In this document: in pieces, positions 1-17,425 of the stretch
How positions within the stretch are numbered: the stretch's first letter is position 1
Layout: every line of letters begins with the position of its first letter
IMG/VR virus record: IMGVR_UViG_2744054854_000001
Span: 1 to 26,947 of that record
Reading direction: 5' to 3' (one strand)
Source: a virus
Lineage: Duplodnaviria > Heunggongvirae > Uroviricota > Caudoviricetes
DNA length: 26,947 bases
The notes under the pieces: generated by a model
What the model saw: only the letters and a program-made list of their open reading frames with translations
What the model was told of the DNA's origin: nothing
The model's database searches: none
Translations under genes and position numbers: made by a program

Positions 1-167
1 CAGAGGCTTTTTCCTCTGCTGTAAATGTTCGTCTCATTCAAAAAACCTCCGCAACCCCATGTTTTCACATAACTGTTGCGTTGACCAATTGAATCTACAA
101 CCGCGCTCTTGATGTCAGACTCCCTGAACAATTCTCGTTAATCGGGAAACTCAGAGCGCAGTATCCT

Positions 168-716
168 GTGGTCACACTTTGCCACGTGTTCGGGGTTCAT
201 CGCAGCAGCTACAAATACTGGGGAAAAAGCCTCGAAAAGCCAGATGGCAGGCGAGCTGTGTTACGCAGTCAGGTTCTGGAGCTGCATAACATCAGTCATG
301 GTTCTGCTGGCGCAAGAAGTATCGCGATTATGGCAACCCTGAGAGGCTTTAAAATGGGACGCTGGCTTGCCGGAAAGCTCATGAAAGAACTGGGTCTGGT
401 GAGTTATCAGCAGCCTACCCACCGATATAAACGTGGTGGTCATGAACACATAGTTATCCCGAATCGCCTTGAGCGACAGTTCGCAGTGACTGCACTGGCT
501 CATCGCGACTGGACACGCTTTGTTGAGATAGAGATTGGCTTGTATAGCAATCGATTTGAAGTTATTAGCCCAGGGGCGCTGAATAATTCGATGTCGGTTG
601 AAAAGATGGTTGCAGGTCAGCGTTCACCACGTAATACGATTATCATGGAAGTCTTACGTGATTATGGTTACGTTGATTTCAGGGGATGGGAGTCAGGACA
701 AAGATTATTCCACTAA
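168..716 (+). pseudogene. IS3-family transposase OrfB-like remnant; only the N-terminal ~110 codons look transposase-like, the rest is degenerate
   Basis: Translation [17 protein letters not shown] ... [41 protein letters not shown] ... [20 protein letters not shown] fits the conserved N-terminal region of IS3-family OrfB; no DDE catalytic region follows; no intact upstream orfA frame. Confidence 0.45.
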
Positions 717-857
717 CACAGGCCATGAGTGGCCAATACCCTGAGTTTACTGCAACAGATGATTATTTGAAAACAATACTTTATCGCTCACCATCGTCTT
801 GATATATAAGGTCTGGCCTTTCCATCCATAAGAAAGGCCATTGCTGTAAAAAATAAA

Positions 858-1484
858 TTACCCGCGACTGCAGCCGAAATTACGGTCCCCATCACCGACT
901 ATTTTAGTTCTTACTTTGGTCATGTAATCCACCCTGTTCATCAAATCGCTATAAGTCTGCTCAAAGTTGTCCCTTTTACGATTTAGGAGATATTTTCCAT
1001 TTGATGGGTAATTAACTAGCTTCCCAGAGTCATCTATCGGGATGCCAAGTGCACTGTACCAGGCTGTTGTTATCATTGTACGTAACGTGTTACGCTTTAA
1101 GTCATAATCCCCCAAATGATAATAAGCATCCTGATTGAAACACAATATCAGATGGTAATGCCGTTTTCCATTTTTGGTATATTCTCGGACCCATGCGTAA
1201 CGTAAGGTTGAATGTCGGGTATCAGGCCAGTCTTTTCGTTGAGTTTTAATATGCTTATCGTGTTCAAGCTTTGCTTTTAACGCACTGGTAAAGCGAGATA
1301 TAGCACCAGAGTCAACTCTGGGTTGAAAGAATGGGTTATCCATATTTTCTGTATCAATTGGATCATGCAGATCAACACGAAGAATCATTGAGTTAGGATG
1401 TTCGTTGAGGGAGTCATCAATAACCTGTTGTATTCTATCCCGATATAGGGATACGTGTGATCCGAATTCACTATCGTATGTCAT
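858..1484 (-). CDS. YagK/YfjJ-family protein (inovirus Gp2-like), with an HUH-like motif
   Basis: 208-aa ORF; motif KRHYHLILCF (H-hydrophobic-H then hydrophobics) followed by Tyr-rich segment; position next to yfjI-like and alpA as in CP4-57/CP4-6 islands. Confidence 0.55.
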   Translation of the reverse strand: MTYDSEFGSHVSLYRDRIQQVIDDSLNEHPNSMILRVDLHDPIDTENMDNPFFQPRVDSGAISRFTSALKAKLEHDKHIKTQRKDWPDTRHSTLRYAWVREYTKNGKRHYHLILCFNQDAYYHLGDYDLKRNTLRTMITTAWYSALGIPIDDSGKLVNYPSNGKYLLNRKRDNFEQTYSDLMNRVDYMTKVRTKIVGDGDRNFGCSRG

Positions 1485-1614
1485 ATTGTATCCTATTTAT
1501 TGATATTGGTGTAGGTAATATATACAATATATATTACCTATCATGATAACAAACTATTAGCCGGACTGGGCTCGGTGTTTGTTTTTACTCCTGAATTAAA
1601 ATCATTTGTTATCA

Positions 1615-3030
1615 TCAAAGCACGGGGTTTAAACCAGCTATGGTTATCAATGTGGTTTTGCCTTTCTTTGCCACTAGTATTCTATTTTGAGAGTACAACA
1701 TACCGAGTAATTCATTTGCTTTACTACGCTTTCTAAATTTATTAGGACCATATTGGAGAACAGTATTTTTAGTAATGTAAGGTACAACAAGGCGGTTACA
1801 ATGATTTTTTATCCACCAATAAAGCTCATCCGCCTCCGAGATTGCGGGCGTTAATTCCTGAGGTTTAGAAAATATGTGGATGTACTCATTAACATACCAG
1901 GTAGTTATCTTCACAGCATCTTCGACTGCAGAAAGAGATATATCTCCATCATTGCCATTAAAATAATGCAGCAGAGAGGCCACTCTGGCCATATTTTCTG
2001 CGACCTTAGATGCATAGTCTCTAAAATCTGATAAGGTGCCGAGTAAGCCCATATCTGACTCCACCTTGTTATAAAATTCGATCCAGCGATTTTCTGCTTC
2101 TACAGAAAATCGCAGGCAAAGACGATCATTTTGATTATCTCTGGCAATACTTTCGTTAACTATCTCCATCAGTCGTTGATGGAATACCGGCAAATGTTCG
2201 CTTGAAACAACGGGGCTGGAGATTCTTCTGGAACCTTGCTTTGAATCAGGCTGGCATATGAGACATCGAGCGAAAAAACCGATCCCTTTGGCTGTATCGC
2301 CTTTACGTTGCAGATAACCTTTAAACACATCAGGCTGAACCATAAGTGCTAGCGTCAGTCTGGCATCTCTGATTAATTTCTCTGGCTCACTTTTCCTTTC
2401 CACTGAAAATGTTGCGCCATCCCACATTTTGTTGATGAAAGGCAGTTCGTTCAGCGTGTAACCGTTAAAAATAGTGCCAGCCTCATCAGACATGATACCG
2501 ATAGATCGCCAATAACCACAGAGGTAATCTTTAATAGCCGCAGGAGTGGCATCATTAAATATCTGCTTGAACCTGATCGGTGGTTGCTGGTGCGACGCCA
2601 ACAGCGCTTTAAGTTGTTCATTTGTCGCCAGATGATCTTTGTTACGGCGAATATCTGATTTGAGTTTTGACATCAGTGCTTTTCTTTCAAAATTAAAAAT
2701 TTCTTCATCACTTCGCCAGGTATTAAGAGCATGCGTGTACTTATCAAATAATTCTTCCTCCAGTTGATATAATGGCTTCATCAGCATTTTATCAACCGTA
2801 CTTTTCCGTTCGCCAGATTCTGCAAGTGTCAGCAAGTAAAGTGATACTGGGCTACGTAGATTAGTAAGTCGACAAACATCAATCCGGTTCTGACAGGCAA
2901 GAGATATTACCCCAAGAGCAGAAGCAGCAATCAAACCTTGAGGGGCCTGCGTATGCTGTTCCACTTCATAAATTGCATTTCTGATAATCTGAGGGAACGC
3001 ATTTACAGGAAAAGGATGACCGTTAAACAT
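1615..3030 (-). CDS. YfjI-like DUF3987-family protein (putative island replication/primase-associated protein)
   Basis: 471-aa ORF starting MFNGHPFPVNAFP; size and position directly downstream of alpA match recalled E. coli YfjI. Confidence 0.55.
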   Translation of the reverse strand: MFNGHPFPVNAFPQIIRNAIYEVEQHTQAPQGLIAASALGVISLACQNRIDVCRLTNLRSPVSLYLLTLAESGERKSTVDKMLMKPLYQLEEELFDKYTHALNTWRSDEEIFNFERKALMSKLKSDIRRNKDHLATNEQLKALLASHQQPPIRFKQIFNDATPAAIKDYLCGYWRSIGIMSDEAGTIFNGYTLNELPFINKMWDGATFSVERKSEPEKLIRDARLTLALMVQPDVFKGYLQRKGDTAKGIGFFARCLICQPDSKQGSRRISSPVVSSEHLPVFHQRLMEIVNESIARDNQNDRLCLRFSVEAENRWIEFYNKVESDMGLLGTLSDFRDYASKVAENMARVASLLHYFNGNDGDISLSAVEDAVKITTWYVNEYIHIFSKPQELTPAISEADELYWWIKNHCNRLVVPYITKNTVLQYGPNKFRKRSKANELLGMLYSQNRILVAKKGKTTLITIAGLNPVL

Positions 3031-3156
3031 ATAATACCTCTAATACAATTCACGTTAAAAAATTCTGCGCAAGTTGTTATTCCGCTATTAATAGCAGAAA
3101 TAGCAGGATGAAATAACTCTAATTACAACATTTTGAATGTATGTTAGGTAATTACT

Positions 3157-3369
3157 TCAAATAAGTTTGCTGCGTTGCAATAGCCATTCATCAATCTCTG
3201 ATTCAACCCATCCAACAGATTTCACTCCGAGCATTCGCTTTTTGGGGAAGGAAGCGTCGTAACGCGGTGATTTGGGGTTCAACCAGTCGTAGATTGTTGC
3301 CCTTGCCATACCAGTTTTTTGGATTACCGTAGGTAAGCGGAGTATCCTAACGGTTGATGGATTGTTCAT
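3157..3369 (-). CDS. alpA: AlpA-family transcriptional regulator (prophage regulatory protein)
   Basis: 70-aa ORF MNNPSTVRILRLPTVIQKTGMARATIYDWLNPKSPRYDASFPKKRMLGVKSVGWVESEIDEWL, near-identical in pattern to recalled AlpA of CP4-57; HTH in the N-terminal half. Confidence 0.85.
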   Translation of the reverse strand: MNNPSTVRILRLPTVIQKTGMARATIYDWLNPKSPRYDASFPKKRMLGVKSVGWVESEIDEWLLQRSKLI

Positions 3370-3494
3370 GCTTGATTGCCTCTCGTTAGTTCATTTTGGT
3401 TGTAGAAAGATTAGCGGCAAGCATTAATGCAAAAAATCCGCGTACCAAAAATACATTTTTTACAACACTTAACTAATTGATATTTGGTGTTTTT

Positions 3495-4373
3495 ATGTTG
3501 ACAGCGATTGAGTTTTGCGAAGAAATTAGTCAAAAATCGGTTTGTCTTTCTGGGCAGATGGTCGAATGTGATTGGGACATATACATTGATATGCTCAGCG
3601 AAAGTTATCCTGCGATACTGAAGGAACTAAGCGAAATGCGAGATCAGTTCTGGAATTCTGATAAGGTAGGAACACGTGTGGTTTTGTATAGTGCTCCATC
3701 TCATGAAGAGTATAAATATTATACTGGTGACAGAGTGGGTCAATTAATAGAGGAATATGCTGAATTATATGATCCAGTTCAGGAATGCTGGAAAGAGTTA
3801 AAGTCACGTATTTTCAGGGGAACATTTTCTCATCTTATTCAGGATCCTTTTTTAATTAATGATGTGTTTAAATCACATCTATTTTTTGCCTCGATGTCTT
3901 ATCAATGGGGAAAATCAGTTATGTCAGAGAATGAGTGTGTTGCTATTAAAGCATTCATTAAATCTTCTGAATTATTTGATAGATGTATTGGTATGTCATG
4001 GTTTCATGTTTCTGTATGTGCTCAAAAAAAATTATCCCATGTTAGAGCTAAAGCCGGAAAACAAGGTGGGAGCAGTAAAGCGGAAGTATATCGAGTAATT
4101 CAAGATAAACTTGTTTATTTGATCAATGAATCTGTTCCTGAAGGTGGGTGGAAAAGTAAAGCAGCTGCGGTAAATGCTCTCATTGATCCTTTGTGGGACT
4201 TTATTAAAGAGTCAAATTTTGACATTAATAATGAAAGTAAAAAATATCGTATCGCAACAATGAGCCAAGATGCTTTGGAAGATACCATTATTAAAAACTG
4301 GTCAAGAAATATTGAAAGTATCAAATTGGCTTTAGATAATACAGTTGCTAGAAAAAAGAAAGTCACAGGATAA
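3495..4373 (+). CDS. hypothetical protein, AT-rich cargo gene between integrase and alpA (YfjH-position)
   Basis: Long open frame (track 3477..4373; ATG at 3495 preferred over the TTG); no recognisable motif; markedly AT-rich relative to flanks; divergent from alpA. Confidence 0.5.
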   Translation: MLTAIEFCEEISQKSVCLSGQMVECDWDIYIDMLSESYPAILKELSEMRDQFWNSDKVGTRVVLYSAPSHEEYKYYTGDRVGQLIEEYAELYDPVQECWKELKSRIFRGTFSHLIQDPFLINDVFKSHLFFASMSYQWGKSVMSENECVAIKAFIKSSELFDRCIGMSWFHVSVCAQKKLSHVRAKAGKQGGSSKAEVYRVIQDKLVYLINESVPEGGWKSKAAAVNALIDPLWDFIKESNFDINNESKKYRIATMSQDALEDTIIKNWSRNIESIKLALDNTVARKKKVTG

Positions 4374-4399
4374 AAGCCCGTATTATTAATAGTTGAATT

Positions 4400-4424
4400 A
4401 TCAGCACCCATTATGGGTGCTGAT
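4400..4424. terminator. perfect hairpin between convergent genes (bidirectional terminator candidate)
   Basis: atcagcaccc / gggtgctgat inverted repeat with short loop lying between the 3' ends of the cargo ORF (+) and the integrase (-); flanks AT-rich but no clean U-tract. Confidence 0.4.
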
Positions 4425-4431
4425 AAAGGAT

Positions 4432-5673
4432 TCATCCCACAAGCCGTATTCCCCTAACCCCACTATTAACGATACTGCCGCTATCTGCTGCTTTTACAAA
4501 ATCAGCCCACCATTGCATCATCGGACGACGTTGCTCAAGATAATCACTGCGGTTATAAGCGCGACGCACCTCATTTTTGTCTACATGAGCAAGCGCTGCT
4601 TCAATGACATCAGGTGGAAATCCTTCCTCATTGAGTGCCGTACTGGCGATAGAACGCAAGCCGTGTGAAACAAGTACACCTCCTAAGCCAGCACGCTTGA
4701 GTGCTGCATTCACTGTTTGGCTATTCATTGGTTGGTTGGGCTTGATACGGCTAGGAAAGATAAATTCTCGGCCACCACTGAGAGGCTTCATCATTTCCAG
4801 AATAGCAAGAGCCCCATCAGATAGTGGAACCGTATGGTCCCGGTTCATCTTCATTCGAGCTGCAGGAATTTTCCATTCGCTAGCATTGAAATCGATCTCA
4901 TCCCATCGAGCCTCAGCAGCTTCGGCAGGGCGGGTGATGGTTAGAAGTTGCCACATGAACAGGCATCGTGTGGACAGGCTGATACTTGCCGTGCGCATAG
5001 TCTGCATTAATTGTGGAAGTTGATCCGGGCGGATACTAGGCATGTTTTTCTTCTGCGGTTTCTCGAATGCTTTCCCGATGTTAACGCTGGGAACAGCATC
5101 AATTAGGCCTGTGTTCTGAGCATAAATCATGACTTCGTTAATACGCTGACAAAGGCGGCGAACAGTCTCTAATGCACCTCTGGCCTGAACCGGCTGCACT
5201 GCTTTAACCAGAGTATGAGCCTTAATCTCGGTGACACTGATATCACCGATTGCTGGGAAAACATCTCTCTCAAGCGAGCGCCAGATATCATCGGCATAGT
5301 CCTCTGTTACGCTGGCTTTCTTCACATTCCACCAACGCTCGGCAACTAACAGGAAAGTGTTGGTTTTAGCCTCTTGAGAATTTCTAACCTGCTCTTTCTG
5401 ATGTTCCTGAGGATCAATGTCTTTCGCCAATAAAACTCGAGATTCAGCTCTGAGTTTACGCGCATCAGAAAGGGAGACAGCAGGGTAGGCTCCGAAGCTT
5501 TGCTTGGTTCGCTGTTTTGTCAGAGGTCGATAGTAACGGAATTGCCAGAGCTTACTACCACTGGACTTGATTAACAGAGTAAGCCCGTCACCATCATATA
5601 GCTGGTAATCGGCATCTTTAGGTTTGGCGGCTTTGATTTCCGTATCGGTTAACGGCTTGGTTTTTCTTGCCAT
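4432..5673 (-). CDS. intA: tyrosine integrase, CP4-57 IntA-like
   Basis: ORF track 4432..5709; preferred start ATG at 5673 giving MARKTKPLTDTEIKAAKPKD, the typical N-terminus of P4/CP4-57-type integrases, with GGAG RBS upstream; C-terminal HGLRS...Y catalytic region. Confidence 0.85.
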   Translation of the reverse strand: MARKTKPLTDTEIKAAKPKDADYQLYDGDGLTLLIKSSGSKLWQFRYYRPLTKQRTKQSFGAYPAVSLSDARKLRAESRVLLAKDIDPQEHQKEQVRNSQEAKTNTFLLVAERWWNVKKASVTEDYADDIWRSLERDVFPAIGDISVTEIKAHTLVKAVQPVQARGALETVRRLCQRINEVMIYAQNTGLIDAVPSVNIGKAFEKPQKKNMPSIRPDQLPQLMQTMRTASISLSTRCLFMWQLLTITRPAEAAEARWDEIDFNASEWKIPAARMKMNRDHTVPLSDGALAILEMMKPLSGGREFIFPSRIKPNQPMNSQTVNAALKRAGLGGVLVSHGLRSIASTALNEEGFPPDVIEAALAHVDKNEVRRAYNRSDYLEQRRPMMQWWADFVKAADSGSIVNSGVRGIRLVG

Positions 5674-5796
5674 GGGGAGTCTCCATGCGTTTAGGCCCAA
5701 CGAAAACAATAGAGCTTTTCGTTGGGCCTATCAATGGGCCTAAAAGGTTCGGATTTAATTAGTTCTCTTCGGACTTCGCGGGACAAAGTGAGGGCA

Positions 5797-5830
5797 CAAA
5801 AAAGCCCGCAGGGCTTGCGCCGTGCGGGCT
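5797..5830 (-). terminator. rho-independent terminator downstream of the ssrA 3' end copy
   Basis: On the minus strand: AGCCCGCA ... TGCGGGCT stem followed by TTTTTT. Confidence 0.55.
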
Positions 5831-5876
5831 CTTAGGACTTCATCGGATGACTCTGGTAATCACCGATGGAGAATTT

Positions 5877-5921
5877 TGGTGGAGCTGGCGGGAGTTGAAC
5901 CCGCGTCCGAAATTCCTACAT
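5877..5921 (-). other. attachment-site core: 45-nt copy of the tmRNA (ssrA) 3' end (attR-type remnant, not an intact tmRNA gene)
   Basis: TGGTGGAGCTGGCGGGAGTTGAACCCGCGTCCGAAATTCCTACAT is the reverse complement of the recalled 3' end of E. coli tmRNA (...GAUGUAGGAAUUUCGGACGCGGGUUCAACUCCCGCCAGCUCCACCA); the match stops at 5921 and the upstream sequence is unrelated AT-rich DNA followed by a phage integrase. Confidence 0.8.
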
Positions 5922-6038
5922 ACCATTTTTACACTAACGAAATCATATTTTTTCATTTTAAATCATGATGTTAGTGTTAATCTGTGTTTGCTTGTTTTAC
6001 TTGTTTTTAGTGCTCTGCCGCCAAAGTGCCGCCATTTA

Positions 6039-7064
6039 TTAGCGATGCCAGTTGAGGTTATGAAGTGGATTTTTGGTAACGGCATCTTCCAGATGATCCG
6101 GTGCAAAATGGGCATAAATCATGGTCATTTTAATATCAGCGTGCCCTAAAATATCCCTCAATACTAAAATGTTTCCGCCGTTCATCATAAAGTGGCTGGC
6201 GAAAGTGTGGCGCAGAACGTGGGTACATTGACCTTCAGGTAGTTCAATTCCAGCTCGTTTTACCGCACGCTCAAAAGCCTTTCGGCATGGTGTGAATAAC
6301 TTTCCTCTGTTTTTGGGTAATTCTTCATACAGTTCCTGAGAAATAGGAACAGTTCGGTTTTTCTTTCCTTTTGTTTTGGTATAGGTAATTCGATACTTTG
6401 ATATCTGGTTACCTTGCAGGTTTTCGGCTTCGCTCCATCTTGCCCCGGTTGCCAGACAAATCTTGGCAATCATTAGCAGACTGGGACTTTGAGATTCAGC
6501 ACAAGCGTCAAGCAGGCGTTTGATTTCATCAGCAGCAAGGAACGCCAGTTCACCCTCTGCAATTTTGAAAGTTGGCAGACCGGCGAGAGGGTTGGGTGCA
6601 GACCAATGTCCCAGCTTTTTCAGTGTGCCAAAAACTGAGGATAGGTTACGTTGTTCAAGGTTCACCGTTCTGGGCTTAACTGGTGACATGAGCACACCAT
6701 CTTCGTTTTTGACCTCACCTTTTAATCTGGCTTCCCGGTATTTTGTGAAATCACCTGCTGTCAATTCAGAAGCGATGGGATCGCCAAGCCCATTACAAAT
6801 GATTTTTAACTTAGCCATTAATCGCTTAGGGTCAGCGAGTGTCTGACCGTACAGGGAATACCATTGCTCAATCACTTCTGACAGTTGTCGCCGATCTTCC
6901 TTTTCTCCCAGCCAAGGTTTCTTGTTTACCTCGTCCATGGTGAAATTCTCAAACGCAATGGCTTCGCCTTTCGTCGCAAATTGTTTGCGTACGCGTTTGC
7001 CATCTCGCCCGTTTGGGTAGCATTCACATAACCACTTTCCGTTCGGCTGTTTTCTGATGGTCAT
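6039..7064 (-). CDS. int: prophage tyrosine integrase (P2/186 family)
   Basis: 341-aa ORF, catalytic HxLRHTFAS...Y region near C-terminus; start codon 1 nt from the stop of the upstream repressor gene (cI-int operon); 3' end adjacent to the att core. Confidence 0.9.
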   Translation of the reverse strand: MTIRKQPNGKWLCECYPNGRDGKRVRKQFATKGEAIAFENFTMDEVNKKPWLGEKEDRRQLSEVIEQWYSLYGQTLADPKRLMAKLKIICNGLGDPIASELTAGDFTKYREARLKGEVKNEDGVLMSPVKPRTVNLEQRNLSSVFGTLKKLGHWSAPNPLAGLPTFKIAEGELAFLAADEIKRLLDACAESQSPSLLMIAKICLATGARWSEAENLQGNQISKYRITYTKTKGKKNRTVPISQELYEELPKNRGKLFTPCRKAFERAVKRAGIELPEGQCTHVLRHTFASHFMMNGGNILVLRDILGHADIKMTMIYAHFAPDHLEDAVTKNPLHNLNWHR

Positions 7065-7065
7065 A

Positions 7066-7698
7066 TCAAAGGCTCTTAATGATTTTCAGTGCGCGGCCTA
7101 TTACCTTAATGTCATCCAGTTCGCACTCAAACGATGAATCATCCTGATGCACTACTAATCTGTTTCCCGGGAGTCGTGTCAATTTTACAATGCTTTTTAT
7201 CCCGTCGATGTCCACTAACCACGTACCATTTACTGGTGGTGTTTGGTTGCGATCTATTAAATAAGAATCACCAGAAGTAGTCACCAGCAGCAGGTTGCTT
7301 GAGTCTGAGGGGAGTATGCTGCTATCAATGATTGCTTTTCCAGCATCGACCAATAAACCACCGTTGAGAGTTGCCTTTTCAATTTCAGGAGATACAAGCT
7401 CAGAAAGAGGTTTAACCTTGCTGGGGTTCACGGAATTGATATTTTTTTTAGGGTCAATGTTTGAACCTGGCTCGCCCTGTCCGGTGGTTAGCCATAGTAA
7501 AGAAACTCCTGTTTCCAAGGCGCACTGAATCACCCATTCTGCGGGAAAGCTATCTCTTAAGTATCTGTTTGCCATAGTGCTTTTTGATGCACCTAAGTGA
7601 TCGCAAAGTTGCTGTCTGGACTTGAAATCATAGGCTGCCATTAGTCTATGGATAGCCTCTCTTCCCCCTGTATTCTCGCCAGCTTTTACCTGTATCAT
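7066..7698 (-). CDS. cI: 186-type CI immunity repressor
   Basis: 210-aa ORF; N-terminal HTH and C-terminal segment TWLVDIDGIKSIVKLTRLPGNRLVV...FECELDDIKVIGRA closely resembling recalled 186 CI (LWLVDIEGAISIRELTKLPGRKL...FECGIDDIKTLGRV). Confidence 0.8.
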   Translation of the reverse strand: MIQVKAGENTGGREAIHRLMAAYDFKSRQQLCDHLGASKSTMANRYLRDSFPAEWVIQCALETGVSLLWLTTGQGEPGSNIDPKKNINSVNPSKVKPLSELVSPEIEKATLNGGLLVDAGKAIIDSSILPSDSSNLLLVTTSGDSYLIDRNQTPPVNGTWLVDIDGIKSIVKLTRLPGNRLVVHQDDSSFECELDDIKVIGRALKIIKSL

Positions 7699-7710
7699 TT
7701 CTTAATCCTA

Positions 7711-7762
7711 TTGACGTATCAAATATTGGATCGTAGTATCTCGATGTATCAAATATTGAATC
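7711..7762 (+). promoter_or_regulatory. lytic promoter candidate (TTGACG-N17-TAGTAT) overlapped by two 17-bp direct repeats, probable repressor operators
   Basis: TTGACG at 7711-7716, TAGTAT at 7734-7739; repeats GTATCAAATATTGGATC (7716-7732) and GTATCAAATATTGAATC (7746-7762), 16/17 identical, 30 bp apart, between divergent cI and apl. Confidence 0.45.
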
Positions 7763-7817
7763 TAATAAAACAAGATAAAACTACATAAACCAAACCTTAA
7801 TCGAGAGATACTGCACT

Positions 7818-8066
7818 ATGAGCAACGACATTTCAATTCGTGTACCAAAAGTGATGGCGACACCTGCAGAGTTCGCGGAATGGGAAGGCCGCTCTCGCGG
7901 TTCGGTATATCAAATGATTCATAATGGTAAACTCGCTAAGTTTTTGGAAAGAAAGGAAAAACCGAAAGACAGAGTATGCATACGTTACCTTGAGTACAAA
8001 AAGGAACAAGTCAGGAAAAACATGGGCCAATCCAATTTCAACTTTAATGTCATCGTTGGTGACTAA
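7818..8066 (+). CDS. apl: Apl/Cox-like excisionase and transcriptional regulator
   Basis: 82-aa ORF first gene rightward of cI with HTH-like segment TPAEFAEWEGRSRGSVYQMIHNGKL; position identical to apl of 186 / cox of P2. Confidence 0.6.
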   Translation: MSNDISIRVPKVMATPAEFAEWEGRSRGSVYQMIHNGKLAKFLERKEKPKDRVCIRYLEYKKEQVRKNMGQSNFNFNVIVGD

Positions 8067-8098
8067 GTTCAATTATGAGAACTTTCTAAGGTGGCAGC

Positions 8099-8608
8099 AT
8101 GTTTGATTACAAAATTTCCAAACATCCGCATTTTGATGAAGCCTGTAGAACTTTTGCACTACGTCACAATATGGCGAAGCTGGCAGAACGTGCAGGAATG
8201 AATGTTCAGACACTGAGAAACAAACTCAACCCAGATCAACCGCATCAGCTCACCGCACCAGAAATCTGGCTGCTTACCGATCTGACTGAAGATTCAACGC
8301 TGGTAGATGGTTTTCTGGCTCAGATTCACTGCCTGCCATGCGTACCGATTAATGAGGTGGCAAAAGAGAAACTGCCACATTACGTCATGAGTGCAACCGC
8401 AGAGATCGGGCGTGTTGCTGCAGGTGCGGTATCTGGCGATGTAAAAACCAGTGCAGGTCGTCGTGATGCTATCAGCAGCATTAACTCTGTAACACGACTG
8501 ATGGCGTTGGCTGCTGTTTCATTGCAGGCCCGTTTACAGGCTAACCCTGCGATGGCGAGTGCAGTTGATACCGTGACTGGCCTCGGTGCTTCATTCGGTT
8601 TGCTGTGA
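8099..8608 (+). CDS. cII: CII-like lysogeny establishment regulator (186 type)
   Basis: 169-aa ORF MFDYKISKHPHFDEACRTFALRHNMAKLAERAGMNVQTLRNKLNP... closely matching recalled 186 CII; GGTGG RBS. Confidence 0.8.
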   Translation: MFDYKISKHPHFDEACRTFALRHNMAKLAERAGMNVQTLRNKLNPDQPHQLTAPEIWLLTDLTEDSTLVDGFLAQIHCLPCVPINEVAKEKLPHYVMSATAEIGRVAAGAVSGDVKTSAGRRDAISSINSVTRLMALAAVSLQARLQANPAMASAVDTVTGLGASFGLL

Positions 8609-8615
8609 GGTGCTT

Positions 8616-8816
8616 ATGCTGACGAAAGAACCATCATTTGCATCGCTGCTGGTAAAGCAAAGCCCGGCAATGCACTACGGTCACGGCTGGATCATGGGTG
8701 AGGATGGAAAACGCTGGCATCCGTGCCGTTCACAAGATGAATTGCTGGCAGAACTATCTACGAAGAAACGGGGGAACAAATGGCTATTGAAGGCGCTGCG
8801 GCGACTGTTCCATTAA
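8616..8816 (+). CDS. hypothetical early protein (fil-position)
   Basis: Open frame with GAGG RBS 6 nt upstream of ATG 8616 (ORF track gives an upstream in-frame start at 8586); no recognised motif. Confidence 0.35.
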   Translation: MLTKEPSFASLLVKQSPAMHYGHGWIMGEDGKRWHPCRSQDELLAELSTKKRGNKWLLKALRRLFH

Positions 8817-9121
8817 GCCCCGGTGAACGCCTGAATGGACTTAATCACATTGCGGAGTTAAGGGCGAAAGTATTTGGCCTGAATATTGAGTCAGAGCTTG
8901 AGCGGTTTATTAAAGATATGCGTGATCCACGGGATATCAATAACGAACAAAATAAACGAGCACTGGCTGCCATATTCTTTATGGCAAAAATTCCAGCTGA
9001 ACGTCATAGCATCAGCATTAATGAGCTGACCACTGACGAAAAGCGGGAGTTGATTAAAGCAATGAATCATTTTCGTGCAGTGGTGAGCTTATTTCCCAGA
9101 CGGCTAACCATGCCGAATTAA
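8780..9121 (+). CDS. hypothetical early protein
   Basis: 113-aa ORF with G-rich RBS; overlaps upstream ORF; function not recognisable. Confidence 0.4.
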   Translation: MAIEGAAATVPLSPGERLNGLNHIAELRAKVFGLNIESELERFIKDMRDPRDINNEQNKRALAAIFFMAKIPAERHSISINELTTDEKRELIKAMNHFRAVVSLFPRRLTMPN

Positions 9122-9188
9122 CCAACTAATGAAATTCATGGCGTAAACCCGCCGGGCATCCCTTTATCTAAATTCAGGAGAATTGACA

Positions 9189-9422
9189 ATGCGTAATATT
9201 GAAACCCGCGCCACTAAAACCGGACCGGATGATGCAGGGCTTAATCTTTTACTGACAGAGGCTCGTCTGGAAGAACGCCGGGCAAGGGCTGAAGCAATGG
9301 CTGCCCGCCTTGATAGTCTTGCGTGTCATATCACATCCCGCCAGCTAAACCACGTCGAAGCGGCAGAACTGCTGCGTGTGACCGCTGAAGCAATCCAGAA
9401 CGAAGCGCAGGAGATCCACTAA
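9189..9422 (+). CDS. hypothetical early protein
   Basis: ATG at 9189 preceded by AGGAG; stop overlaps the next start (TAATG). Confidence 0.4.
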   Translation: MRNIETRATKTGPDDAGLNLLLTEARLEERRARAEAMAARLDSLACHITSRQLNHVEAAELLRVTAEAIQNEAQEIH

Positions 9423-9547
9423 TGGCTGATGCAATGGATCTCGTACAGCAGCGCGTTGAAGAAGAACGCCAGCGCCATAAAAAATGCATTACCTGTCAGG
9501 AAATCGCAGAGCTGAAAGGCAAACATTACAACGGAGGTGCTGTATGA
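9422..9547 (+). CDS. small ORF (41 aa) resembling the C-terminal half of a TraR/DksA-type zinc-finger protein
   Basis: [41 protein letters not shown]; single CxxC followed by K-H-Y as at the C-terminus of TraR-type proteins; start overlaps upstream stop, stop overlaps dam start (ATGA). Not in the ORF track (short). Confidence 0.3.
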   Translation: MADAMDLVQQRVEEERQRHKKCITCQEIAELKGKHYNGGAV

Positions 9548-10398
9548 GCACCATCCTGAAATGGGCGGGAAATAAAACCGCCATAATGTCCGAACTGAAA
9601 AAGCATCTTCCTGCTGGCCCGCGACTGGTTGAACCTTTCGCGGGTTCCTGTGCAGTGATGATGGAGACGGATTACCCCAGCTATCTTGTTGCGGATATTA
9701 ATCCTGATTTAATCAACCTCTATAAAAAGGTTGCTGCTGATTGTGAGGCGTTTATATCTCGTGCCAGAGCTTTATTTGAGGAAGCAAACAGGGAGGTGGC
9801 TTATTACAACATAAGGCAGGAGTTTAATTACTCCACTGAAATTACTGATTTCATGAAAGCGGTATATTTCCTGTATCTCAATCGTCACGGTTACCGTGGT
9901 TTATGTCGCTATAACAAGAGCGGGCATTTCAACATTCCCTACGGTAATTATAAAAATCCGTATTTCCCTGAAAAAGAAATTCGCGCATTTGCAGAAAAAG
10001 CCCAGCGGGCAACGTTTATCTGCGCCAGCTTTGATGAAACGCTGGCGATGTTGAAGGCGGGGGATGTGGTGTATTGCGATCCGCCGTATGACGGTACGTT
10101 TTCCGGCTATCACACTGATGGTTTCACTGAAGATGACCAGTATCACCTGGCATCCGTTCTTGAACATCGAGCATCTGAAGGACATCCGGTCATTGTTTCT
10201 AACAGTGACACGTCTTTGACCCGGTCTCTTTATCGTAATTTCACTCACCACTACATCAGGGCGAAACGCAGCATCGGCGTTGCAGCGGGGGAGGGAAAAT
10301 TTGCAACAGAGATGATTGCCACTAAATCTGCTAATTGGTTTAGTGCCGATTTTAGTAGGGGACGTGACTCTACTGTTATTTTCGGGGTGCAAGTGTGA
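9544..10398 (+). CDS. dam: DNA adenine methyltransferase (Dam-like, predicted GATC N6-adenine MTase)
   Basis: Start ATG 9544 (track 9484); LKWAGNK, EPFAGS (AdoMet binding), [15 protein letters not shown] and DPPY motifs collinear with E. coli Dam. Confidence 0.9.
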
Positions 10399-11225
10399 AA
10401 GAAATGCACCACGGAATTCATCATTTCCATGGGACGCCTGTCTGGGGAAGTGCTGGCGACGTTCATCGTATTGCGGTGAGCGGAGCTGGCGCTTTCGTCT
10501 CCTATGTACGACCAGATCAGATTGCGGCGTCCATTCAGCACGCTCAGGTCGTCGGCATTGATAACGGCGCATTTTCTGCATGGGTGCGTGGGCTAAAAAT
10601 TAACTGGAGTGATTTTTATAAATGGCTCCTGAACTATTACCACCATCCTAAGGTCGCTTTTTTTGTCATTCCTGATGTTGTGGACGGCGGTGAACGTGAC
10701 AATGATGCCCTGATAAACGAAGTTCCGAAAATGTTCTACGGGAAGGCAACTCCCGTCTGGCATCTGCACGAGTCAATCGATCGGCTTATCGAGCTATGTC
10801 GTGAATGGCCTCGTGTCTGCTTTGGATCGTCTGGTGAATATGCGGCTATCAGAACTGCGCACTGGCATCGTCGTATGCAGGACGCTTTTGAAGCAATTTA
10901 TTGCCGACACAATTTCAAAACAGCTGTTCATGGTTTGCGCATGCTTGACGGTCGTGTGTTGGGAAATTACCCACTGGCGACTGCCGACAGTACAAATCTT
11001 GCCTGCAATGTCCCCAAATTTAATAGCAAATATCCTGAGCTTACGCGGGCTATTCAGGAGGCTGAGTATTCGCGCAATCTGACGGAAAAGGAGCTGAAAG
11101 CTGTCATTCTGAAAAACCGTTGCGCAATTTTAAAAGGTGCAATTGAAGCTGTTCGCCCACCTTCAGTTTCTGATTGGCTGTCGAATGGTTTGCAGCCTTC
11201 ACAGCTCGAACTGGAGATTGCGTAA
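10395..11225 (+). CDS. TGT-like (tRNA-guanine transglycosylase fold) protein, candidate DpdA-type DNA base-exchange enzyme
   Basis: 276-aa ORF overlapping dam stop and gene A start; ordered motifs GIDNGAF (cf. TGT DSGGFQ), FFVIPD, CFGSSGE (cf. GLAVGE), HGLRMLDG (cf. LMGVGKP) and ADST (cf. FDCVMPT nucleophile Asp); no C-terminal Zn-binding CxCxxC. CDS confidence is high; functional call is tentative. Confidence 0.55.
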
Positions 11226-13576
11226 TGAACTACAGCTATTCCTGGAATGCTGAGAAAAAAGCAATCAATCCTTACGTAGAGACAGAAGAGCAATCTTCAG
11301 TTTCTGCGCTTTCAAACCTGATCGCTCTGTACGCTGCCGATAACGAGCAGGAACACCTGCGCCGCGAGGTACTGAGTGATCAGGTCTGGGAGCGTTATTT
11401 CTTTAATGAATCCCGTGATCCTGTCCAGCGCGAAATGGAGCAGGATAAGCTCATTAGTCGGGCAAAGCTGGCGCATGAGCAGCAGCGTTTTAACCCGGAC
11501 ATGGTCATTCTGGCAGACGTCAGCGCCCAGCCCTCCCATATCAGCAAGCCGCTGATGCAACGTATTGAATACTTCAGCAGCCTGGGCAGGCCAAAGGCTT
11601 ATTCCCGCTATTTACGTGAGACGATTAAGCCATGTCTGGAACGACTGGAGCATGTACGCGACAGCCAGCTATCTGCATCTTTTCGTTTTATGGCAAGCCA
11701 TGTAGGGCTGGACGACCTGCTGATTCTGCCTGAAATGAGTCAGGATCAGGTGAAACGCCTGTCTACCCTTGTCGCTGCGCATATGAGCATGTGCCTTGAT
11801 GCAGCTTGTGGTGATTTGTATGCCACCGATGACGTTAAGCCAGAAGAAATCCGCAAGACATGGGAAAAGGTGGCAGCGGAAACCCTGCGTCTGGATGTCA
11901 TCCCGCCTGCGTTTGAGCAACTCCGCCGGAAAAGAAACCGCCGTAAACCCGTGCCCTATGAACTCATTCCGGGTTCGCTGGCGCGTATGTTGTGCGCCGA
12001 CTGGTGGTACCGGAAATTATGGAAGATGCGTTGCGAATGGCGGGAAGAGCAGTTGCGTGCTGTCTGCCTGGTCAGCAAAAAAGCATCTCCCTATGTCAGC
12101 TATGAAGCCGTGATGCATAAACGTGAGCAGCGCCGTAAGTCGCTGGAGTTTTTTCGTTCTCATGAACTGGTGAACGAAGACGGCGACACGCTGGACATGG
12201 AGGATGTGGTAAACGCCAGCAGCAGCAACCCTGCGCATCGCCGCAATGAGATGATGGCCTGTGTTAAAGGCCTGGAGCTTATCGCGGAAATGCGTGGTGA
12301 CTGCGCCGTTTTCTACACCATTACCTGTCCGTCACGTTTCCATTCCACGCTCAATAACGGCAGACCAAACCCAACCTGGACAAATGCGACGGTAAGACAA
12401 AGCAGCGATTATCTGGTCGGCATGTTTGCTGCATTTCGTAAGGCGATGCACAAAGCCGGGTTGCGCTGGTATGGCGTGCGGGTGGCTGAGCCGCATCATG
12501 ACGGTACGGTTCACTGGCACCTGTTGTGTTTCATGCGCAAAAAAGACCGCCGTGCCATTACTGCATTGTTGCGTAAGTTTGCCATCCGTGAAGACCGCGA
12601 GGAACTGGGTAATAACACTGGGCCGCGCTTTAAGTCTGAGTTGATTAACCCGCGCAAAGGTACGCCAACAAGCTACATCGCGAAATACATCAGTAAGAAC
12701 ATTGACGGGCGTGGTCTGGCTGGCGAGATCAGCAAGGAAACGGGGAAATCCCTTCGTGATAATGCTGAATACGTTAATGCCTGGGCGTCTCTGCATCGTG
12801 TTCAGCAATTCCGCTTCTTTGGCATTCCGGGGCGTCAGGCTTACCGTGAACTGCGATTGCTGGCTGGTCAGGCGGCAAGGCAACAGGGGGACAAAAAAGC
12901 AGGTGCGCCGGTACTGGATAACCCGCGCCTTGATGCCATCCTGGCTGCTGCTGATGCTGGTTGTTTTGCCACCTACATCATGAAGCAGGGCGGCGTACTG
13001 GTTCCCCGCAAATATCACTTGATCAGAACCGCTTATGAAATCAATGAAGAGCCGACCGCCTATGGCGATCACGGTATTCGTATTTATGGCATCTGGTCAC
13101 CCATTGCAGAGGGCAAGATCTGCACTCATGCAGTGAAGTGGAAAATGGTTCGTAAAGCCGTTGACGTTCAGGAGGCGGTAGCCGACCAGGGCGCTTGCGC
13201 CCCTTGGACTCGTGGCAATAACTGTCCCCCTGTTGAAAATCTGAACAAATCAGGGGGTGATTTGCCAGATATTAAAACCATGAATGAGCAGGAACTGCAC
13301 GATTACCTCCACAATATGGGCCAGAAGGAACGCCGGGAGCTGACAGCCAGGTTAAGACTGGTAAAACCGAAGCGGAAAAAAGCATTCAAACAGAGTATTT
13401 CGGAGCAGCAGCGCCTGCAGCTTGAGGCAGAACTGACTGCCAGAGGGTTTGAAGGTAGTGCATCTGAGATTGATTTGCTTCTGCGTGGTGGCAGCATTCC
13501 GTCAGGTGCCGGGCTACGGATTTTTTACCGCAACCATCGACTGCAGGAAGATGACAAATGGCGCCAGTGGTACTGA
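11225..13576 (+). CDS. A: replication initiation endonuclease gpA (rolling-circle initiator)
   Basis: Start ATG 11225 overlapping upstream stop (track start 11174); HUH motif HWHLLCF and tyrosine motif YIAKYISKN; size and position as P2/186 A. Confidence 0.9.
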
Positions 13577-13672
13577 CGGCAAGGCTTTAACAATTCATGC
13601 TCTTAACGACCATCGTAAGAACGTTCTCATTGACGGATAAAAAATATTTTACTTTTGGATATCAGGGGTATA

Positions 13673-13688
13673 CTGTATATATAAACAG
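13673..13688 (+). promoter_or_regulatory. LexA box (SOS operator) of the prophage SOS/antirepressor operon
   Basis: CTGTATATATAAACAG (CTGT-N8-ACAG, flanked TA...TG) overlapping TATACT -10-like hexamer at 13669-13674; TTGACG at 13630-13635 upstream. Confidence 0.75.
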
Positions 13689-13737
13689 TGGATATGCATA
13701 CAGTTAACGCATGTCCGGGGTCGTGATAGGAGGGAAG

Positions 13738-13926
13738 ATGCAGGACTATCTTTTGGAGTCGTTGAAGCTCCAGCGCATTGATTTTTTTATTAAGCTTGTA
13801 GCGGCTAGTGAGTGCAGCGACGAAGAAAAGCGGCTGGCTATCCAGTGGGTGTCTGAATTGACCGACGAGCTGATGGCGAAAATCCGCAGCCATGAATACT
13901 GCCGGTCAATGGACGTAACCAGTTAA
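13738..13926 (+). CDS. small SOS-operon protein, candidate Tum-type antirepressor N-terminal part
   Basis: ATG 13738 with strong AGGAGG RBS (track start 13711); first ORF downstream of LexA box; position equals tum of 186. Confidence 0.45.
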   Translation: MQDYLLESLKLQRIDFFIKLVAASECSDEEKRLAIQWVSELTDELMAKIRSHEYCRSMDVTS

Positions 13927-13937
13927 GGGAAATCTGT

Positions 13938-14171
13938 ATGCGCATTGAAATAATGATCGATAAAGAGCAGAAGATTAGCCAGGCTACACTGGACGCCCTT
14001 GAATCCGAGCTTTACCGTAATTTGCGCCCTCTGTATCCCAAAACAGCAATTCGTATCCGTAAGGGCAGTGCCAACGGCGTTGAGCTGAGCGGGTTAAAAC
14101 TGGATGAAGATAAAAAGCGAGTGATGGAAATAATGCAGCAGGTCTGGGAGGACGACAGCTGGTTACATTAG
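13938..14171 (+). CDS. DinI-family protein
   Basis: 77-aa ORF MRIEIMIDKEQKISQATLDALESELYRNLRPLYP...KRVMEIMQQVWEDDSW collinear with recalled E. coli DinI (MRIEVTI...ALAGELSRRIQ...QRISEILQETWESADDW). Confidence 0.75.
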   Translation: MRIEIMIDKEQKISQATLDALESELYRNLRPLYPKTAIRIRKGSANGVELSGLKLDEDKKRVMEIMQQVWEDDSWLH

Positions 14172-14305
14172 CGAACGTTGCGGACGATAAAACTGGTTTT
14201 TACCGTCCGCAAGGTTGAACAACGAGCCACGCGAGGCGTTAGTGCTGTTGTGCATGTCTATGCCGCATGAAATCGCATGATCGTTTGAGGATCGTTTTTG
14301 CTCAG

Positions 14306-14332
14306 GCCCGCCAGAACTGGCGGGCTTTTGCT
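14306..14332 (+). terminator. rho-independent terminator after the SOS operon
   Basis: GCCCGCCAG-AACT-CTGGCGGGC followed by TTTTG. Confidence 0.6.
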
Positions 14333-14374
14333 TATGTCATGCAGGTGCATGAAAACCACTACACAAAGCGGGCA

Positions 14375-14393
14375 GGCGTGGCGGGGATACGAG
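14375..14393. other. candidate cos site (cohesive end region)
   Basis: GGCGTGGCGGGGATACGAG resembles the 19-nt cohesive ends of P2/186 as recalled (GGCG-GGCGGGGA...); located in the non-coding region just beyond the 3' end of portal gene Q, as in P2. Exact ends not verifiable here. Confidence 0.4.
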
Positions 14394-14463
14394 CGCGCGC
14401 AACGGGGTAAAATGGCCAAAATCCGGCACAGCCTCTGGCCCGCTGGCGGCCTCATTTAGTGGA

Positions 14464-14473
14464 GGGGGGGGGG
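14464..14473. repeat. G10 homopolymer tract in the cos-proximal intergenic region
   Basis: Ten consecutive G read directly at 14464-14473. Confidence 0.9.
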
Positions 14474-14555
14474 AGATTCAGGGCAAAAAGAAACGCCCCG
14501 CAGAATGCTGCTGAGGCGTTGTGAGAGTTGGTCGGGTTTTGATGTTATGAGTATG

Positions 14556-15599
14556 TCAGCCTCGTTTGCCCTTAAGCCCTAAGTCATAAGCTTCAAAACG
14601 GATCACCTCTTCATTCAGCCAGTCATTCAGCTCCTGCAGTCGCTTTTGCAGTGGCATCAGTTCATTGCGGACGAAGACACGGCTCGCTTTTTCCACATCA
14701 CCAAAGCCGCCAGTGTTGTTGGGAATGATGCCCATCATTTGCGGCGGTACGCGGTGAGCCGCCATCATGTCATCGCGGCTGACGTTCTTGATGTTCAGAA
14801 ATTCATCCTTCGCCGCGACTTCCGACAACGGGATAATCTGAATGCCATCTTTTTTGCCGTTAGGCGAGTACATAAACAGGTTGCGGAAGTTGCCCGGCCC
14901 TTTAGCACTTTTCATTGCCTTGCGGATGTTGTTCACATCCTCCTGGTTCTGCGCGGCGTCGGTCATGTACATGATGAAGCCTGCGTGGCTGCCGTTAATG
15001 TAATACTTGCGGCGGAACAGCGTGGCGGATTCGTTGAGCAGAGCTGACGGAATGGCAGAAAGGTAACCCGGCAGACCATAAATCTCCTGGTTGATATCCG
15101 GCTCCATCAGGTGGAAGACGTTACCTTTTGTGAACTGATACGGCTGTGTCGTCAGGCTGTATTGCACAAACCAGTATGTTTCAAGGTCAAGCCCGCGCCG
15201 GGTGTATTTTGCCAGTGCAGGCTCCAGCGAAATAACTTCACCAAAGCGATTCGTGCGCTTCTCCAGATAGGCGTTACCAAAAACCAGATAGTCCTGCACA
15301 AAACGGGTAAATGCCTGCTGGCTGAGAAGGCGATGTGGAATATAGGTACTGCTGATGATGTCACGTTTAACACTGATCGGGGAGCTGTGGTGCACGGCGG
15401 CGCGGAAGGTTCGTGCCAGTCCGTCAAAACTGACGGGCGGCTCATACCAGCGATCCATCTGTACGCATTCCACATAGTCCAGCAGTTCGCGGCGGTCCAG
15501 TACAGGAATGGGATCACCAAAGCTGAAAGCCTCAGCAACGGGTTTTTTAGTTTCTTCTGCAGTTACGGTTTCGCCTGGCGCGATATGTTCTTTCATCAA
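14556..15599 (-). CDS. Q: portal protein gpQ
   Basis: 347-aa ORF, 4-nt overlap with terminase gene P; size and position as P2 Q next to cos. Confidence 0.85.
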   Translation of the reverse strand: MMKEHIAPGETVTAEETKKPVAEAFSFGDPIPVLDRRELLDYVECVQMDRWYEPPVSFDGLARTFRAAVHHSSPISVKRDIISSTYIPHRLLSQQAFTRFVQDYLVFGNAYLEKRTNRFGEVISLEPALAKYTRRGLDLETYWFVQYSLTTQPYQFTKGNVFHLMEPDINQEIYGLPGYLSAIPSALLNESATLFRRKYYINGSHAGFIMYMTDAAQNQEDVNNIRKAMKSAKGPGNFRNLFMYSPNGKKDGIQIIPLSEVAAKDEFLNIKNVSRDDMMAAHRVPPQMMGIIPNNTGGFGDVEKASRVFVRNELMPLQKRLQELNDWLNEEVIRFEAYDLGLKGKRG

Positions 15600-17362: not shown

Positions 17363-17407
17363 GGCACAAACCTACAGCCTTGAATGAAGGCTTTCCCCGC
17401 CTGCGGT

Positions 17408-17425
17408 TTGTGTGGCTGTCGGTAC
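17408..17425. promoter_or_regulatory. TGT-N12-ACA late-promoter activator (Ogr/B-type) site in the P/O divergent promoter region
   Basis: TGTGTGGCTGTCGGTACA in the 142-bp gap between divergent P and O. Confidence 0.45.

Follow-up and report, generated by a model that had tools for sequence, protein, structure and literature searches.

Tandem arrays of integrative elements were reportedly described by Williams in 2003 under the title 'Traffic at the tmRNA gene'. The prophages Fels-2 and SopEΦ have been reported to integrate into the tmRNA gene ssrA (PMC3448106; PMC10107115 Table 1), and for ssrA of Salmonella LT2 both an element with a P4 integrase (Stm27X) and Fels-2 are listed (PMC10107115 Table 1). 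In E. coli K-12 ssrA loses T357 when IntA and AlpA excise the CP4-57 island, and tmRNA is thereby inactivated (PMC10107115). For tandem arrays, the Islander criterion assigns to each member its own integrase and its own tDNA fragment (PMC4383910). P4-like satellites are defined by the seven components int, psu, δ, sid, alpA, ε and α, of which at least five are co-localised, and δ is nearly always among them (PMC8628076).

We analysed a stretch of 26,947 nt of DNA, referred to as the window, in which two integrase genes lie on either side of a short piece of ssrA. The features are listed in Table 1. We concluded with a probability of roughly 0.93 that positions 5875-5921 represent the attR of a Fels-2/SopEΦ-type prophage (Peduoviridae, with a 186-like switch), which is most probably integrated in the 3' end of E. 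coli ssrA.

Table 1. Positions of the island, junction and prophage features within the window.
Feature	Positions	Strand	Remarks
IS3 transposase remnant fused to ATPase remnant	168-716	plus	NCBIfam transpos_IS3
yfjJ	858-1484	minus	island proximal part (1-4431); Pfam, PHROGs
yfjI/DUF3987	1615-3030	minus	island proximal part; Pfam, PHROGs
alpA	3157-3369	minus	island proximal part; Pfam, PHROGs
yfjH-like ORF	3477-4373	plus	island proximal part; Pfam, PHROGs
intA, P4-type tyrosine integrase of the CP4-57-like island	4432-5673	minus	413 aa, complete; Pfam Arm-DNA-bind_3, Phage_int_M, Phage_integrase
Terminator downstream of the ssrA 3' end, island-borne	5797-5829	minus	terminator-like match (hairpin and T-run); identical in K-12 downstream of ssrA
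att core, Fels-2/SopEΦ-type prophage	5875-5921	.	47 bp (45 nt of ssrA plus AA); within the attR junction
Displaced 3'-terminal 45 nt of ssrA	5877-5921	minus	tmRNA T-arm and acceptor 3' strand with CCA; fragment, not gene
AT-rich phage arm of attR	5922-6038	.	32.5% G+C versus 53% for the whole prophage
Prophage integrase, P2/186 class, Fels-2 type	6039-7064	minus	341 aa, complete; Pfam Int_N, Phage_integrase; reads towards the att junction
CI	7066-7698	minus	Pfam Phage_CI_repr, Phage_CI_C; 186-type lysis-lysogeny switch (7066-8816)
Apl/Cox excisionase	7818-8066	plus	PHROG excisionase/Cox-like
CII	8099-8608	plus	PHROG CII-like
Fil	8586-8816	plus	Pfam Phage_186_Fil
Remaining P2-family prophage in the window	8780-26947	.	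early genes, replication gene A, DinI-like, portal, terminase, capsid, lysis, baseplate, tail-fibre start
cos-like site near 14373	14373-14385		GGCGTGGCGGGGA; in the prophage

The plus strand of the ssrA fragment reads TGGTGGAGCTGGCGGGAGTTGAACCCGCGTCCGAAATTCCTACAT, which corresponds to the 3'-terminal 45 nt of E. coli ssrA in reverse complement. As the preliminary description had stated, it is a copy of the tmRNA 3' end: the match was exact to the annotated ssrA 3' ends in K-12 and four further E. coli genomes, and a 25-nt part of it occurred once in the window (0.00 expected from shuffles). The claim that the tmRNA body is missing was also confirmed. The window departs from ssrA immediately upstream of the 45 nt, ARAGORN detected no tmRNA gene in it (0 genes), and a search of the window with the Rfam tmRNA model RF00023 gave nothing at the gathering score. 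In a permissive Rfam scan solely the 3' end of tmRNA (the last ~50 nt) was aligned, with 33.4 bits versus a cut-off of 47, and the full tRNA-like domain, the pseudoknots and the tag reading frame of RF00023 were not found in the window. An intact tmRNA gene contiguous with the fragment was looked for as well and was absent from the window. A second ssrA-like site, an inverted repeat formed by 5877-5898 and 9331-9352 (18/22 nt), was taken as a chance match, because 54 kb should by a rough estimate contain about 0.5 exact 11-mer seeds and because it lies inside a DUF2732 ORF. Rfam also proposed an IsrM sRNA at 5798-5886 (32 bits versus a cut-off of 376); since this match covers the terminator hairpin alone, we did not regard it as IsrM.

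When the fragment was aligned with the regenerated ssrA of E. coli APEC-O117H42, the block of identity comprised exactly the 47 bp of the core. This core equals the 23+24 bp that the Fels-2 record annotates as attP, and all 47 bp recur at both ends of the SopEΦ record. In the window the core lies next to the 3' end of the prophage int gene and is followed by a phage arm that is conserved beside the core in both Fels-2 and SopEΦ (ACCATTTTTA... and CTGCCGCCAA..TGCCGCCA). The arm leads into the stop codon of the integrase gene, in agreement with the earlier statement that AT-rich DNA and the 3' end of int replace the tmRNA body. It contains two TGCCGCCA repeats (6016-6023 and 6027-6034), which are probable arm-type sites, to which Int would bind. 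In the 186 record arm-type sites with the consensus YAYCGCCAYTY are annotated, three on one side and two on the other.

The prophage integrase showed full-length identity of 95.3% to Fels-2 Int and of 93.0% to SopEΦ Int, and its protein sequence is 100% identical to WP_001547641.1 of E. coli APEC-O117H42. Its identity to 186 Int was 56%. The term "186-like", which had been used for this phage, is therefore appropriate for the class of the integrase and for the switch genes but not for Int itself. Coliphage 186 (Eganvirus) further resembles the prophage in its switch architecture, in the use of the 3' end of a small RNA gene as target, in a long core and in arm-type sites on both sides, but its core has 36 nt and its targets are tRNA-Ile genes (ileY), not ssrA. 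With Fels-2 and SopEΦ the prophage shares the ssrA-derived core, the conserved arm, the orientation of int towards att, the CI-Apl-CII-Fil switch and the P2-type late genes. It differs from them in its host, which is E. coli here and Salmonella there, and in the absence of sopE from the part seen here, where the early region carries a D12 methylase and a PHROG-887 Tgt/DpdA-like gene. The 186-type switch (CI, Apl, CII, Fil) was found together with P2-type replication and late genes; gene A matched Pfam Phage_GPA and the DinI-like gene matched PHROG DinI. When compared to P2-family prophages that are annotated at the ssrA locus of E. coli, the prophage part showed coverage of 94-100% and identity of 94-98.6%. 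It continues past the right end of the window, which is reached in the tail-fibre region (26947).

On the other side of the fragment the sequence corresponds to the CP4-57 island of K-12. IntA is 97% identical to K-12 CP4-57 IntA and 35% identical to P4 Int, and scored 922 bits with NCBIfam PRK09692. The intA start codon (ATG at 5673) is located 203 nt from the CCA end of the fragment, beyond the terminator, and the spacer with the terminator is ~99% identical to the K-12 sequence downstream of ssrA. A CP4-57-type integrase beyond a terminator had been predicted on the basis of its 5' end; the prediction held, and the whole gene turned out to lie within the window. The K-12 IntA orthologue directly follows the ssrA 3' end and is itself followed by yfjH-alpA-yfjI-yfjJ, so that the first five genes have the same order as in K-12. 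Two differences from K-12 CP4-57 were seen: the island follows a dead 45-nt fragment here and a functional ssrA there, and here it is cut by the IS3 remnant after yfjJ. The island leaves the window at its left end after this remnant, which leaves 5.9 kb of it visible; the distal att copy expected at its far end, a psaA-like remnant of ssrA, would lie beyond. Positions 100-5876 of the window are 100% identical to E. coli SL124, in which the island is located directly after an intact ssrA and no phage is present. In this strain, the closest island-only relative, the native distal flank of the island was absent from the 49.5 kb inspected.

The arrangement most probably arose by the known route of integration into a small RNA gene. 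The phage would bring, within its attP, 47 bp that copy the end of ssrA. When Int recombines attP with ssrA, the tmRNA gene would be made complete again beside ogr, at the prophage end ~31 kb further right and beyond the window, and the 3' end that ssrA had before would be shifted to the int end and remain there as a dead 45-nt fragment, still joined to the DNA formerly downstream of ssrA, namely the terminator and intA of the CP4-57-like island. The far core would be flanked on its other side by the predicted ogr-side phage arm (…CCTTGATTTATT). Since the fragment is still joined to the island, the tandem order is ssrA, prophage, fragment, island.

The complete architecture was present in close relatives. 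WP_001547641.1 is annotated in E. coli APEC-O117H42, T28R and 160-11H1, and the DNA of T28R and 160-11H1 is 99.9-100% identical over 5877-7064. Each of the three genomes has exactly two copies of the core: one next to int with the phage-arm flank, the other inside an annotated intact ssrA beside ogr, 30-31 kb away. The same attL as in these relatives was found in L014. Together with the type of Int and the match of core and arm, the intact ssrA ~31 kb away in relatives supported the earlier proposal that the fragment is the displaced 3' end of an ssrA occupied by a P2-family prophage and a CP4-57-like island. Since the window ends ~10 kb before the far end, we infer the intact ssrA of this genome from its relatives. 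No public contig that shares the exact gpI protein was identical to the window; the best one showed 60 mismatches in 11.7 kb.

The window shows the fragment alone, as would also be expected if ssrA had been destroyed here by a deletion or rearrangement and the fragment were not a product of prophage recombination. We consider such a remnant extremely improbable: the break lies exactly at the edge of the 47-bp Fels-2/SopEΦ core and adjoins the conserved phage arm, an intact ssrA stands at the opposite end of the prophage in every inspected relative that has this junction, and the ssrA 3' end is retained in all 5426 complete E. coli genomes, with an annotated intact ssrA in those inspected. With attR of an ssrA prophage as the preferred reading, the order of insertion has to be considered. 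The island was likely there first and the phage came second, although the order is unprovable, as either of the regenerated cores is open to a second element (PMC7192596). This property would also allow the reverse order, in which the prophage entered an island-free ssrA, as in T28R, and the island later entered the fragment at the prophage attR and not the regenerated gene. Phage-only genomes are known, and the core includes the T-loop-to-CCA segment that is used by CP4-57 IntA; the distal site of CP4-57 in K-12 resembles ssrA from TTCA to CCA. The 45-nt fragment holds this segment in full and is therefore a possible IntA target. Nevertheless, the reverse order appears unlikely to us. In SL124 the island segment, down to the IS3-truncated inner part, is 100% identical and sits directly on an intact ssrA without phage, many E. 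coli genomes that lack the phage share the intA-ssrA junction at 100% identity, and a recent integration is hardly to be expected of an island that is decayed and truncated by an IS. The island was thus presumably present before the phage.

The preliminary description had emphasized that a P2/186-type helper directly abuts a P4-related island. As in the P2-P4 system, a P2-family prophage adjoins an element with a P4-type integrase and an AlpA that resembles the P4 regulator ORF88/Vis, and the late-gene set of the prophage is full as far as the window shows. That the two form a functional pair, in which the island as a P4-type satellite is co-induced or co-packaged with the prophage, is nevertheless very improbable. 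When all 13 P4 proteins were compared to the window by tblastn, matches were obtained for Int and ORF88 only, and none for sid, δ, psu, ε, α and cI. When the ORFs in the visible 5.9 kb of the island were scanned with Pfam and PHROG, Psu, Sid and Delta were not detected; one unrelated ORF was found in the relevant island interval, and IS3 has truncated the island. No match to the 19-nt P2/186 cos consensus was obtained with up to three mismatches, no P2/P4 cos was found in the island, and the ends of P4 gave only chance matches of 11-13 nt, all within the prophage. In contrast to P4, the island in its visible part lacks sid, psu, δ, ε, α and cos and therefore falls outside the seven-component definition of a P4-like satellite (PMC8628076). 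The same negative outcome was obtained with the P4 proteins for CP4-57 of K-12. The notion of a helper-satellite pair was therefore not upheld, as the homologues of P4 are limited to Int and AlpA/Vis.

The tandem arrangement as such is ordinary and has already been described; the window adds another strain-specific combination. As in other tandem arrays at tRNA and tmRNA genes (Islander; TIGER), a regenerated target is followed by a first element with an integrase and a target fragment and by a second element with an integrase, and we see no difference of principle. By the Islander criterion, the prophage contributes int and the fragment, and the island contributes intA, while its distal fragment would fall outside the window. 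The reading is useful mainly for annotation: it fixes the prophage boundary on the attR side exactly, at the 47-bp core, shows where the CP4-57-like island begins and leads one to expect an intact ssrA ~31 kb away. Otherwise it has little reach and adds a further case to the heavy, varied traffic at the tmRNA gene.

A single aspect has some biological reach: the prophage lies between the CP4-57 island and the functional ssrA and could uncouple excision of the island from the inactivation of tmRNA. The left recombination site of the island lies in the dead 45-nt fragment, and excision of the island would therefore spare the functional ssrA. It may even be, as a rather doubtful suggestion derived from the sequence arrangement, that insertion of the prophage rewires the 'rescue switch' of CP4-57, and that tandem occupancy decides whether excision of the island is coupled to the loss of trans-translation. 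If this was true, the action of IntA on the regenerated ssrA would remove prophage and island as one composite circle and leave ssrA mutated.

Island-only, phage-only and tandem states were all found in E. coli, and the fragment, the arm and int occur together in ~147 of the 5426 complete genomes of this species. A search with the exact 27-mer of the core-arm junction in one genome per species retrieved Citrobacter sp. FP75 only, a pattern that is too strict to measure breadth. The same tandem was present in this Citrobacter strain and in a Klebsiella record.

The plus strand at 5877-5921 reads TGGTGGAGCTGGCGGGAGTTGAACCCGCGTCCGAAATTCCTACAT; its reverse complement is the final 45 nt of E. coli ssrA and is identical to the annotated ssrA 3' ends of K-12, SL124, APEC-O117H42, T28R and 160-11H1. 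A 25-nt part of this fragment occurred only once in the window, and the expectation from shuffled sequences was 0.00, even at 3 mismatches. ARAGORN found no tmRNA gene in the window, and no tmRNA reached the Rfam gathering score. In a permissive Rfam scan, the tmRNA model scored 33.4 bits, below its cut-off of 47, and truly aligned just the ~50 nt at the 3' terminus. Immediately upstream of the 45 nt (in tmRNA sense), the match to ssrA stops and AT-rich DNA (32.5% G+C versus 53% for the prophage) continues up to the stop codon of the 341-aa integrase. This confirmed the preliminary description, which had recognized an ssrA end with its body replaced by AT-rich DNA and the 3' end of int. It had also placed a CP4-57-type integrase beyond a terminator; this was correct, except that the gene is present as a whole and not only as a 5' end. 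Its ATG is 203 nt from the CCA end.

Coordinates of features in the window
Feature	Position	Strand	Remarks
IS3-family transposase fragment and HATPase_c_4 remnant	168-716	+	NCBIfam transpos_IS3, residues 3-112; HATPase_c_4, residues 120-173
Left integrase (intA)	4432-5673	-	413 aa, complete; Arm-DNA-bind_3, Phage_int_M and catalytic domain
Hairpin and T-run	5797-5829	-	downstream of CCA end
Partial IsrM match	5798-5886	-	RF02763
ssrA 3'-end fragment	5877-5921	-	45 nt
AT-rich stretch	5922-6038		
Right integrase (int)	6039-7064	-	341 aa; Int_N and catalytic domain
TCACATCCCGCCAGCTAAACCA	9331-9352	+	inside DUF2732 ORF
D12-class N6-adenine DNA methyltransferase	9484-10398	+	PF02086
276-aa protein	10395-11225	+	PHROG 887
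GGCGTGGCGGGGATACGAG	14373-14391		between DinI-like gene and portal gene

A partial Rfam match to the Salmonella island sRNA IsrM took in no more than a few initial nucleotides and the terminator hairpin that follows the ssrA end. With 32 bits versus a cut-off of 376 and partial coverage, identity to IsrM was rejected; the match suggests that the IsrM terminator originates from the same ssrA-downstream, integrase-proximal sequence. TCACATCCCGCCAGCTAAACCA matches the ssrA 3' end in 18/22 nt and was judged a chance match.

Both integrases are tyrosine recombinases (PF00589) with different domain architectures, and the two proteins share 27% identity over 146 residues only, in agreement with the proposed two families. 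The left integrase has 97% identity to K-12 IntA of CP4-57 and 35% to P4 Int. The right integrase has 95.3% identity to Fels-2 Int and 93% to SopEΦ Int, but only 56% to 186 Int. By sequence identity it is specifically of the Fels-2 type; the earlier term "186-like" suits the class of the phage. The genes following int show the order of a 186-type switch (CI, Apl/Cox-like excisionase, CII, Fil), and beyond it replication gene A, a DinI-like gene, a cos-like site and P2-type late genes are found. The right end of the window (26947) lies in the tail-fibre region, ~10 kb before the expected attL. The cos-like site GGCGTGGCGGGGATACGAG agrees with the 186-type cohesive end over the first 13 nt of the latter but not beyond, and it is probably the cos of this prophage. 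The full P2/186 cos 19-mer had no match in the window at up to 3 mismatches. The methyltransferase gene of the early region is followed by the gene for a 276-aa protein, which matched "queuine tRNA-ribosyltransferase" (Tgt/DpdA-like, E = 2e-96) in PHROG and had no Pfam match. This pair (9484-11225) may represent DNA-modification or anti-restriction cargo. At the same position, APEC-O117H42 and T28R carry only a methylase and 160-11H1 an unnamed ORF.

ssrA is the reported integration target of Fels-2 and SopEΦ (PMC3448106; PMC10107115 Table 1). The Fels-2 record has an annotated attP of 23+24 bp split between its two ends, and the SopEΦ record starts and finishes with TTTGGTGGAG…CTACAT. These 47 bp recur in the window at 5875-5921, and the phage arm that follows them is also shared; it starts with ACCATTTTTA and finishes with CTGCCGCCAA..TGCCGCCA immediately ahead of the stop codon of int. 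Both copies of the TGCCGCCA repeat are similar to the annotated arm-type Int sites of phage 186 and are putative Int-binding sites.

The far prophage end was inspected in three complete E. coli genomes with the same Int, APEC-O117H42, T28R and 160-11H1. WP_001547641.1 is annotated in all three; the protein of APEC-O117H42 is 100% identical, and the DNA of T28R and 160-11H1 is 99.9-100% identical to 5877-7064. All three carry the whole element from int and CI to ogr, followed by one small ORF, an annotated intact ssrA 30-31 kb from int, and smpB. The 45 nt occur exactly twice per genome, once beside the phage arm ACCATTTTTA and once inside ssrA beside the ogr-side arm …CCTTGATTTATT, and the two core copies are identical over 47 bp. 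The second core copy predicted by the preliminary description was thus present in the relatives, and an intact ssrA is expected at the far prophage end of the window's own genome.

The DNA between the left integrase and the ssrA end is ~99% identical to K-12, and the genes past intA follow the K-12 CP4-57 order: a yfjH-like ORF, alpA, yfjI (DUF3987) and yfjJ. After yfjJ, an IS3 transposase fragment is fused to an ATPase remnant in one ORF, so the island is truncated by an IS at this point. SL124 has the segment 100-5876, truncation included, at 100% identity; its island lies directly at an intact ssrA, the phage being absent, and the IS junction is followed there by a heat-resistance locus (clpK and others).

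These data fit the established model for tyrosine integrases at tRNA/tmRNA targets, in which the 3' end of the target is duplicated in attP (PMC4383910, PMC7192596); no addition to the model is needed. Recombination within this copy restores the gene at one end of the element and leaves its former 3' end at the other. The displaced piece stays attached to the old neighbour of ssrA, in this lineage the island-borne terminator and intA. Since the 45 nt include the T-loop-to-CCA segment resembling the CP4-57 distal site, the fragment is both the prophage attR and the left att site of the island. Tandem occupancy of ssrA, as proposed before, was upheld. The proposed order, with the island inserted first, appears the more likely one (probability roughly 0.8), because a decayed island is an unlikely recent integrant. 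Sequence does not prove this order, since both regenerated cores are open to a second element (PMC7192596) and a tandem from which the phage excised precisely would return to the state of SL124.

It had further been suggested that a P2/186-type helper lies beside a P4-related island. The definition of P4-like satellites comprises seven components (int, psu, δ, sid, alpA, ε, α), of which δ is almost never missing (PMC8628076). When all 13 P4 proteins were compared to the window by tblastn, only Int and ORF88/Vis (AlpA-like) matched, as was also the case for K-12 CP4-57. The P4 reference genome has psu, δ and sid between int and alpA, whereas this interval contains a single unrelated ORF in the window, and no P2/P4 cos was found in the visible island. 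A helper-satellite pairing was therefore rejected. The island is P4-related through its integration module alone, and both elements are adjacent because they target ssrA.

In K-12, ssrA loses T357 when IntA/AlpA excise CP4-57; tmRNA is thereby inactivated, and ArfA takes over ribosome rescue (PMC10107115). With its left site in the dead fragment, excision of the island alone should spare the functional ssrA. If recombination used the regenerated ssrA instead, prophage and island would be removed together. The island may no longer be excisable, since its distal end is beyond the window and missing from the 49.5 kb inspected in SL124.

Fragment, arm and int were found in 147/5426 complete E. coli genomes (at least 80% coverage of 5877-7064, many at 100% identity), and eight had the same intA-type neighbour. 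Every combination of the two elements occurs. SL124 and K-12 have only the island. T28R has only the phage, and its fragment borders on the native flank AATCATGATTGG… beside ypjA. APEC-O117H42 has the phage and a CP4-57-like island; in 160-11H1 the phage is accompanied by a 7-kb island of another kind, which encodes a different P4-type integrase. A Klebsiella "phage" record shows the same order of P4-type int, 45-nt fragment and Fels-2-type int; in Citrobacter sp. FP75 the fragment has the same spacer beside it, where a P4-type integrase gene with an ORF of only 119 codons begins. An element with a P4 integrase and Fels-2 are both entered for ssrA of Salmonella LT2 in Table 1 of PMC10107115, after Williams 2003. 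Elements arrayed in tandem at tRNA/tmRNA genes form a recognized class; a junction of this kind at ssrA is already described, and near-identical ones occur in ~3% of complete E. coli genomes. In APEC-O117H42 (NZ_CP172331.1 1150000-1197500), further integrase genes and remnants, a second YfjJ/DUF3987 gene set and a large NACHT-domain gene cluster follow the prophage-side intA, and the array at ssrA appears to be longer and mosaic there.
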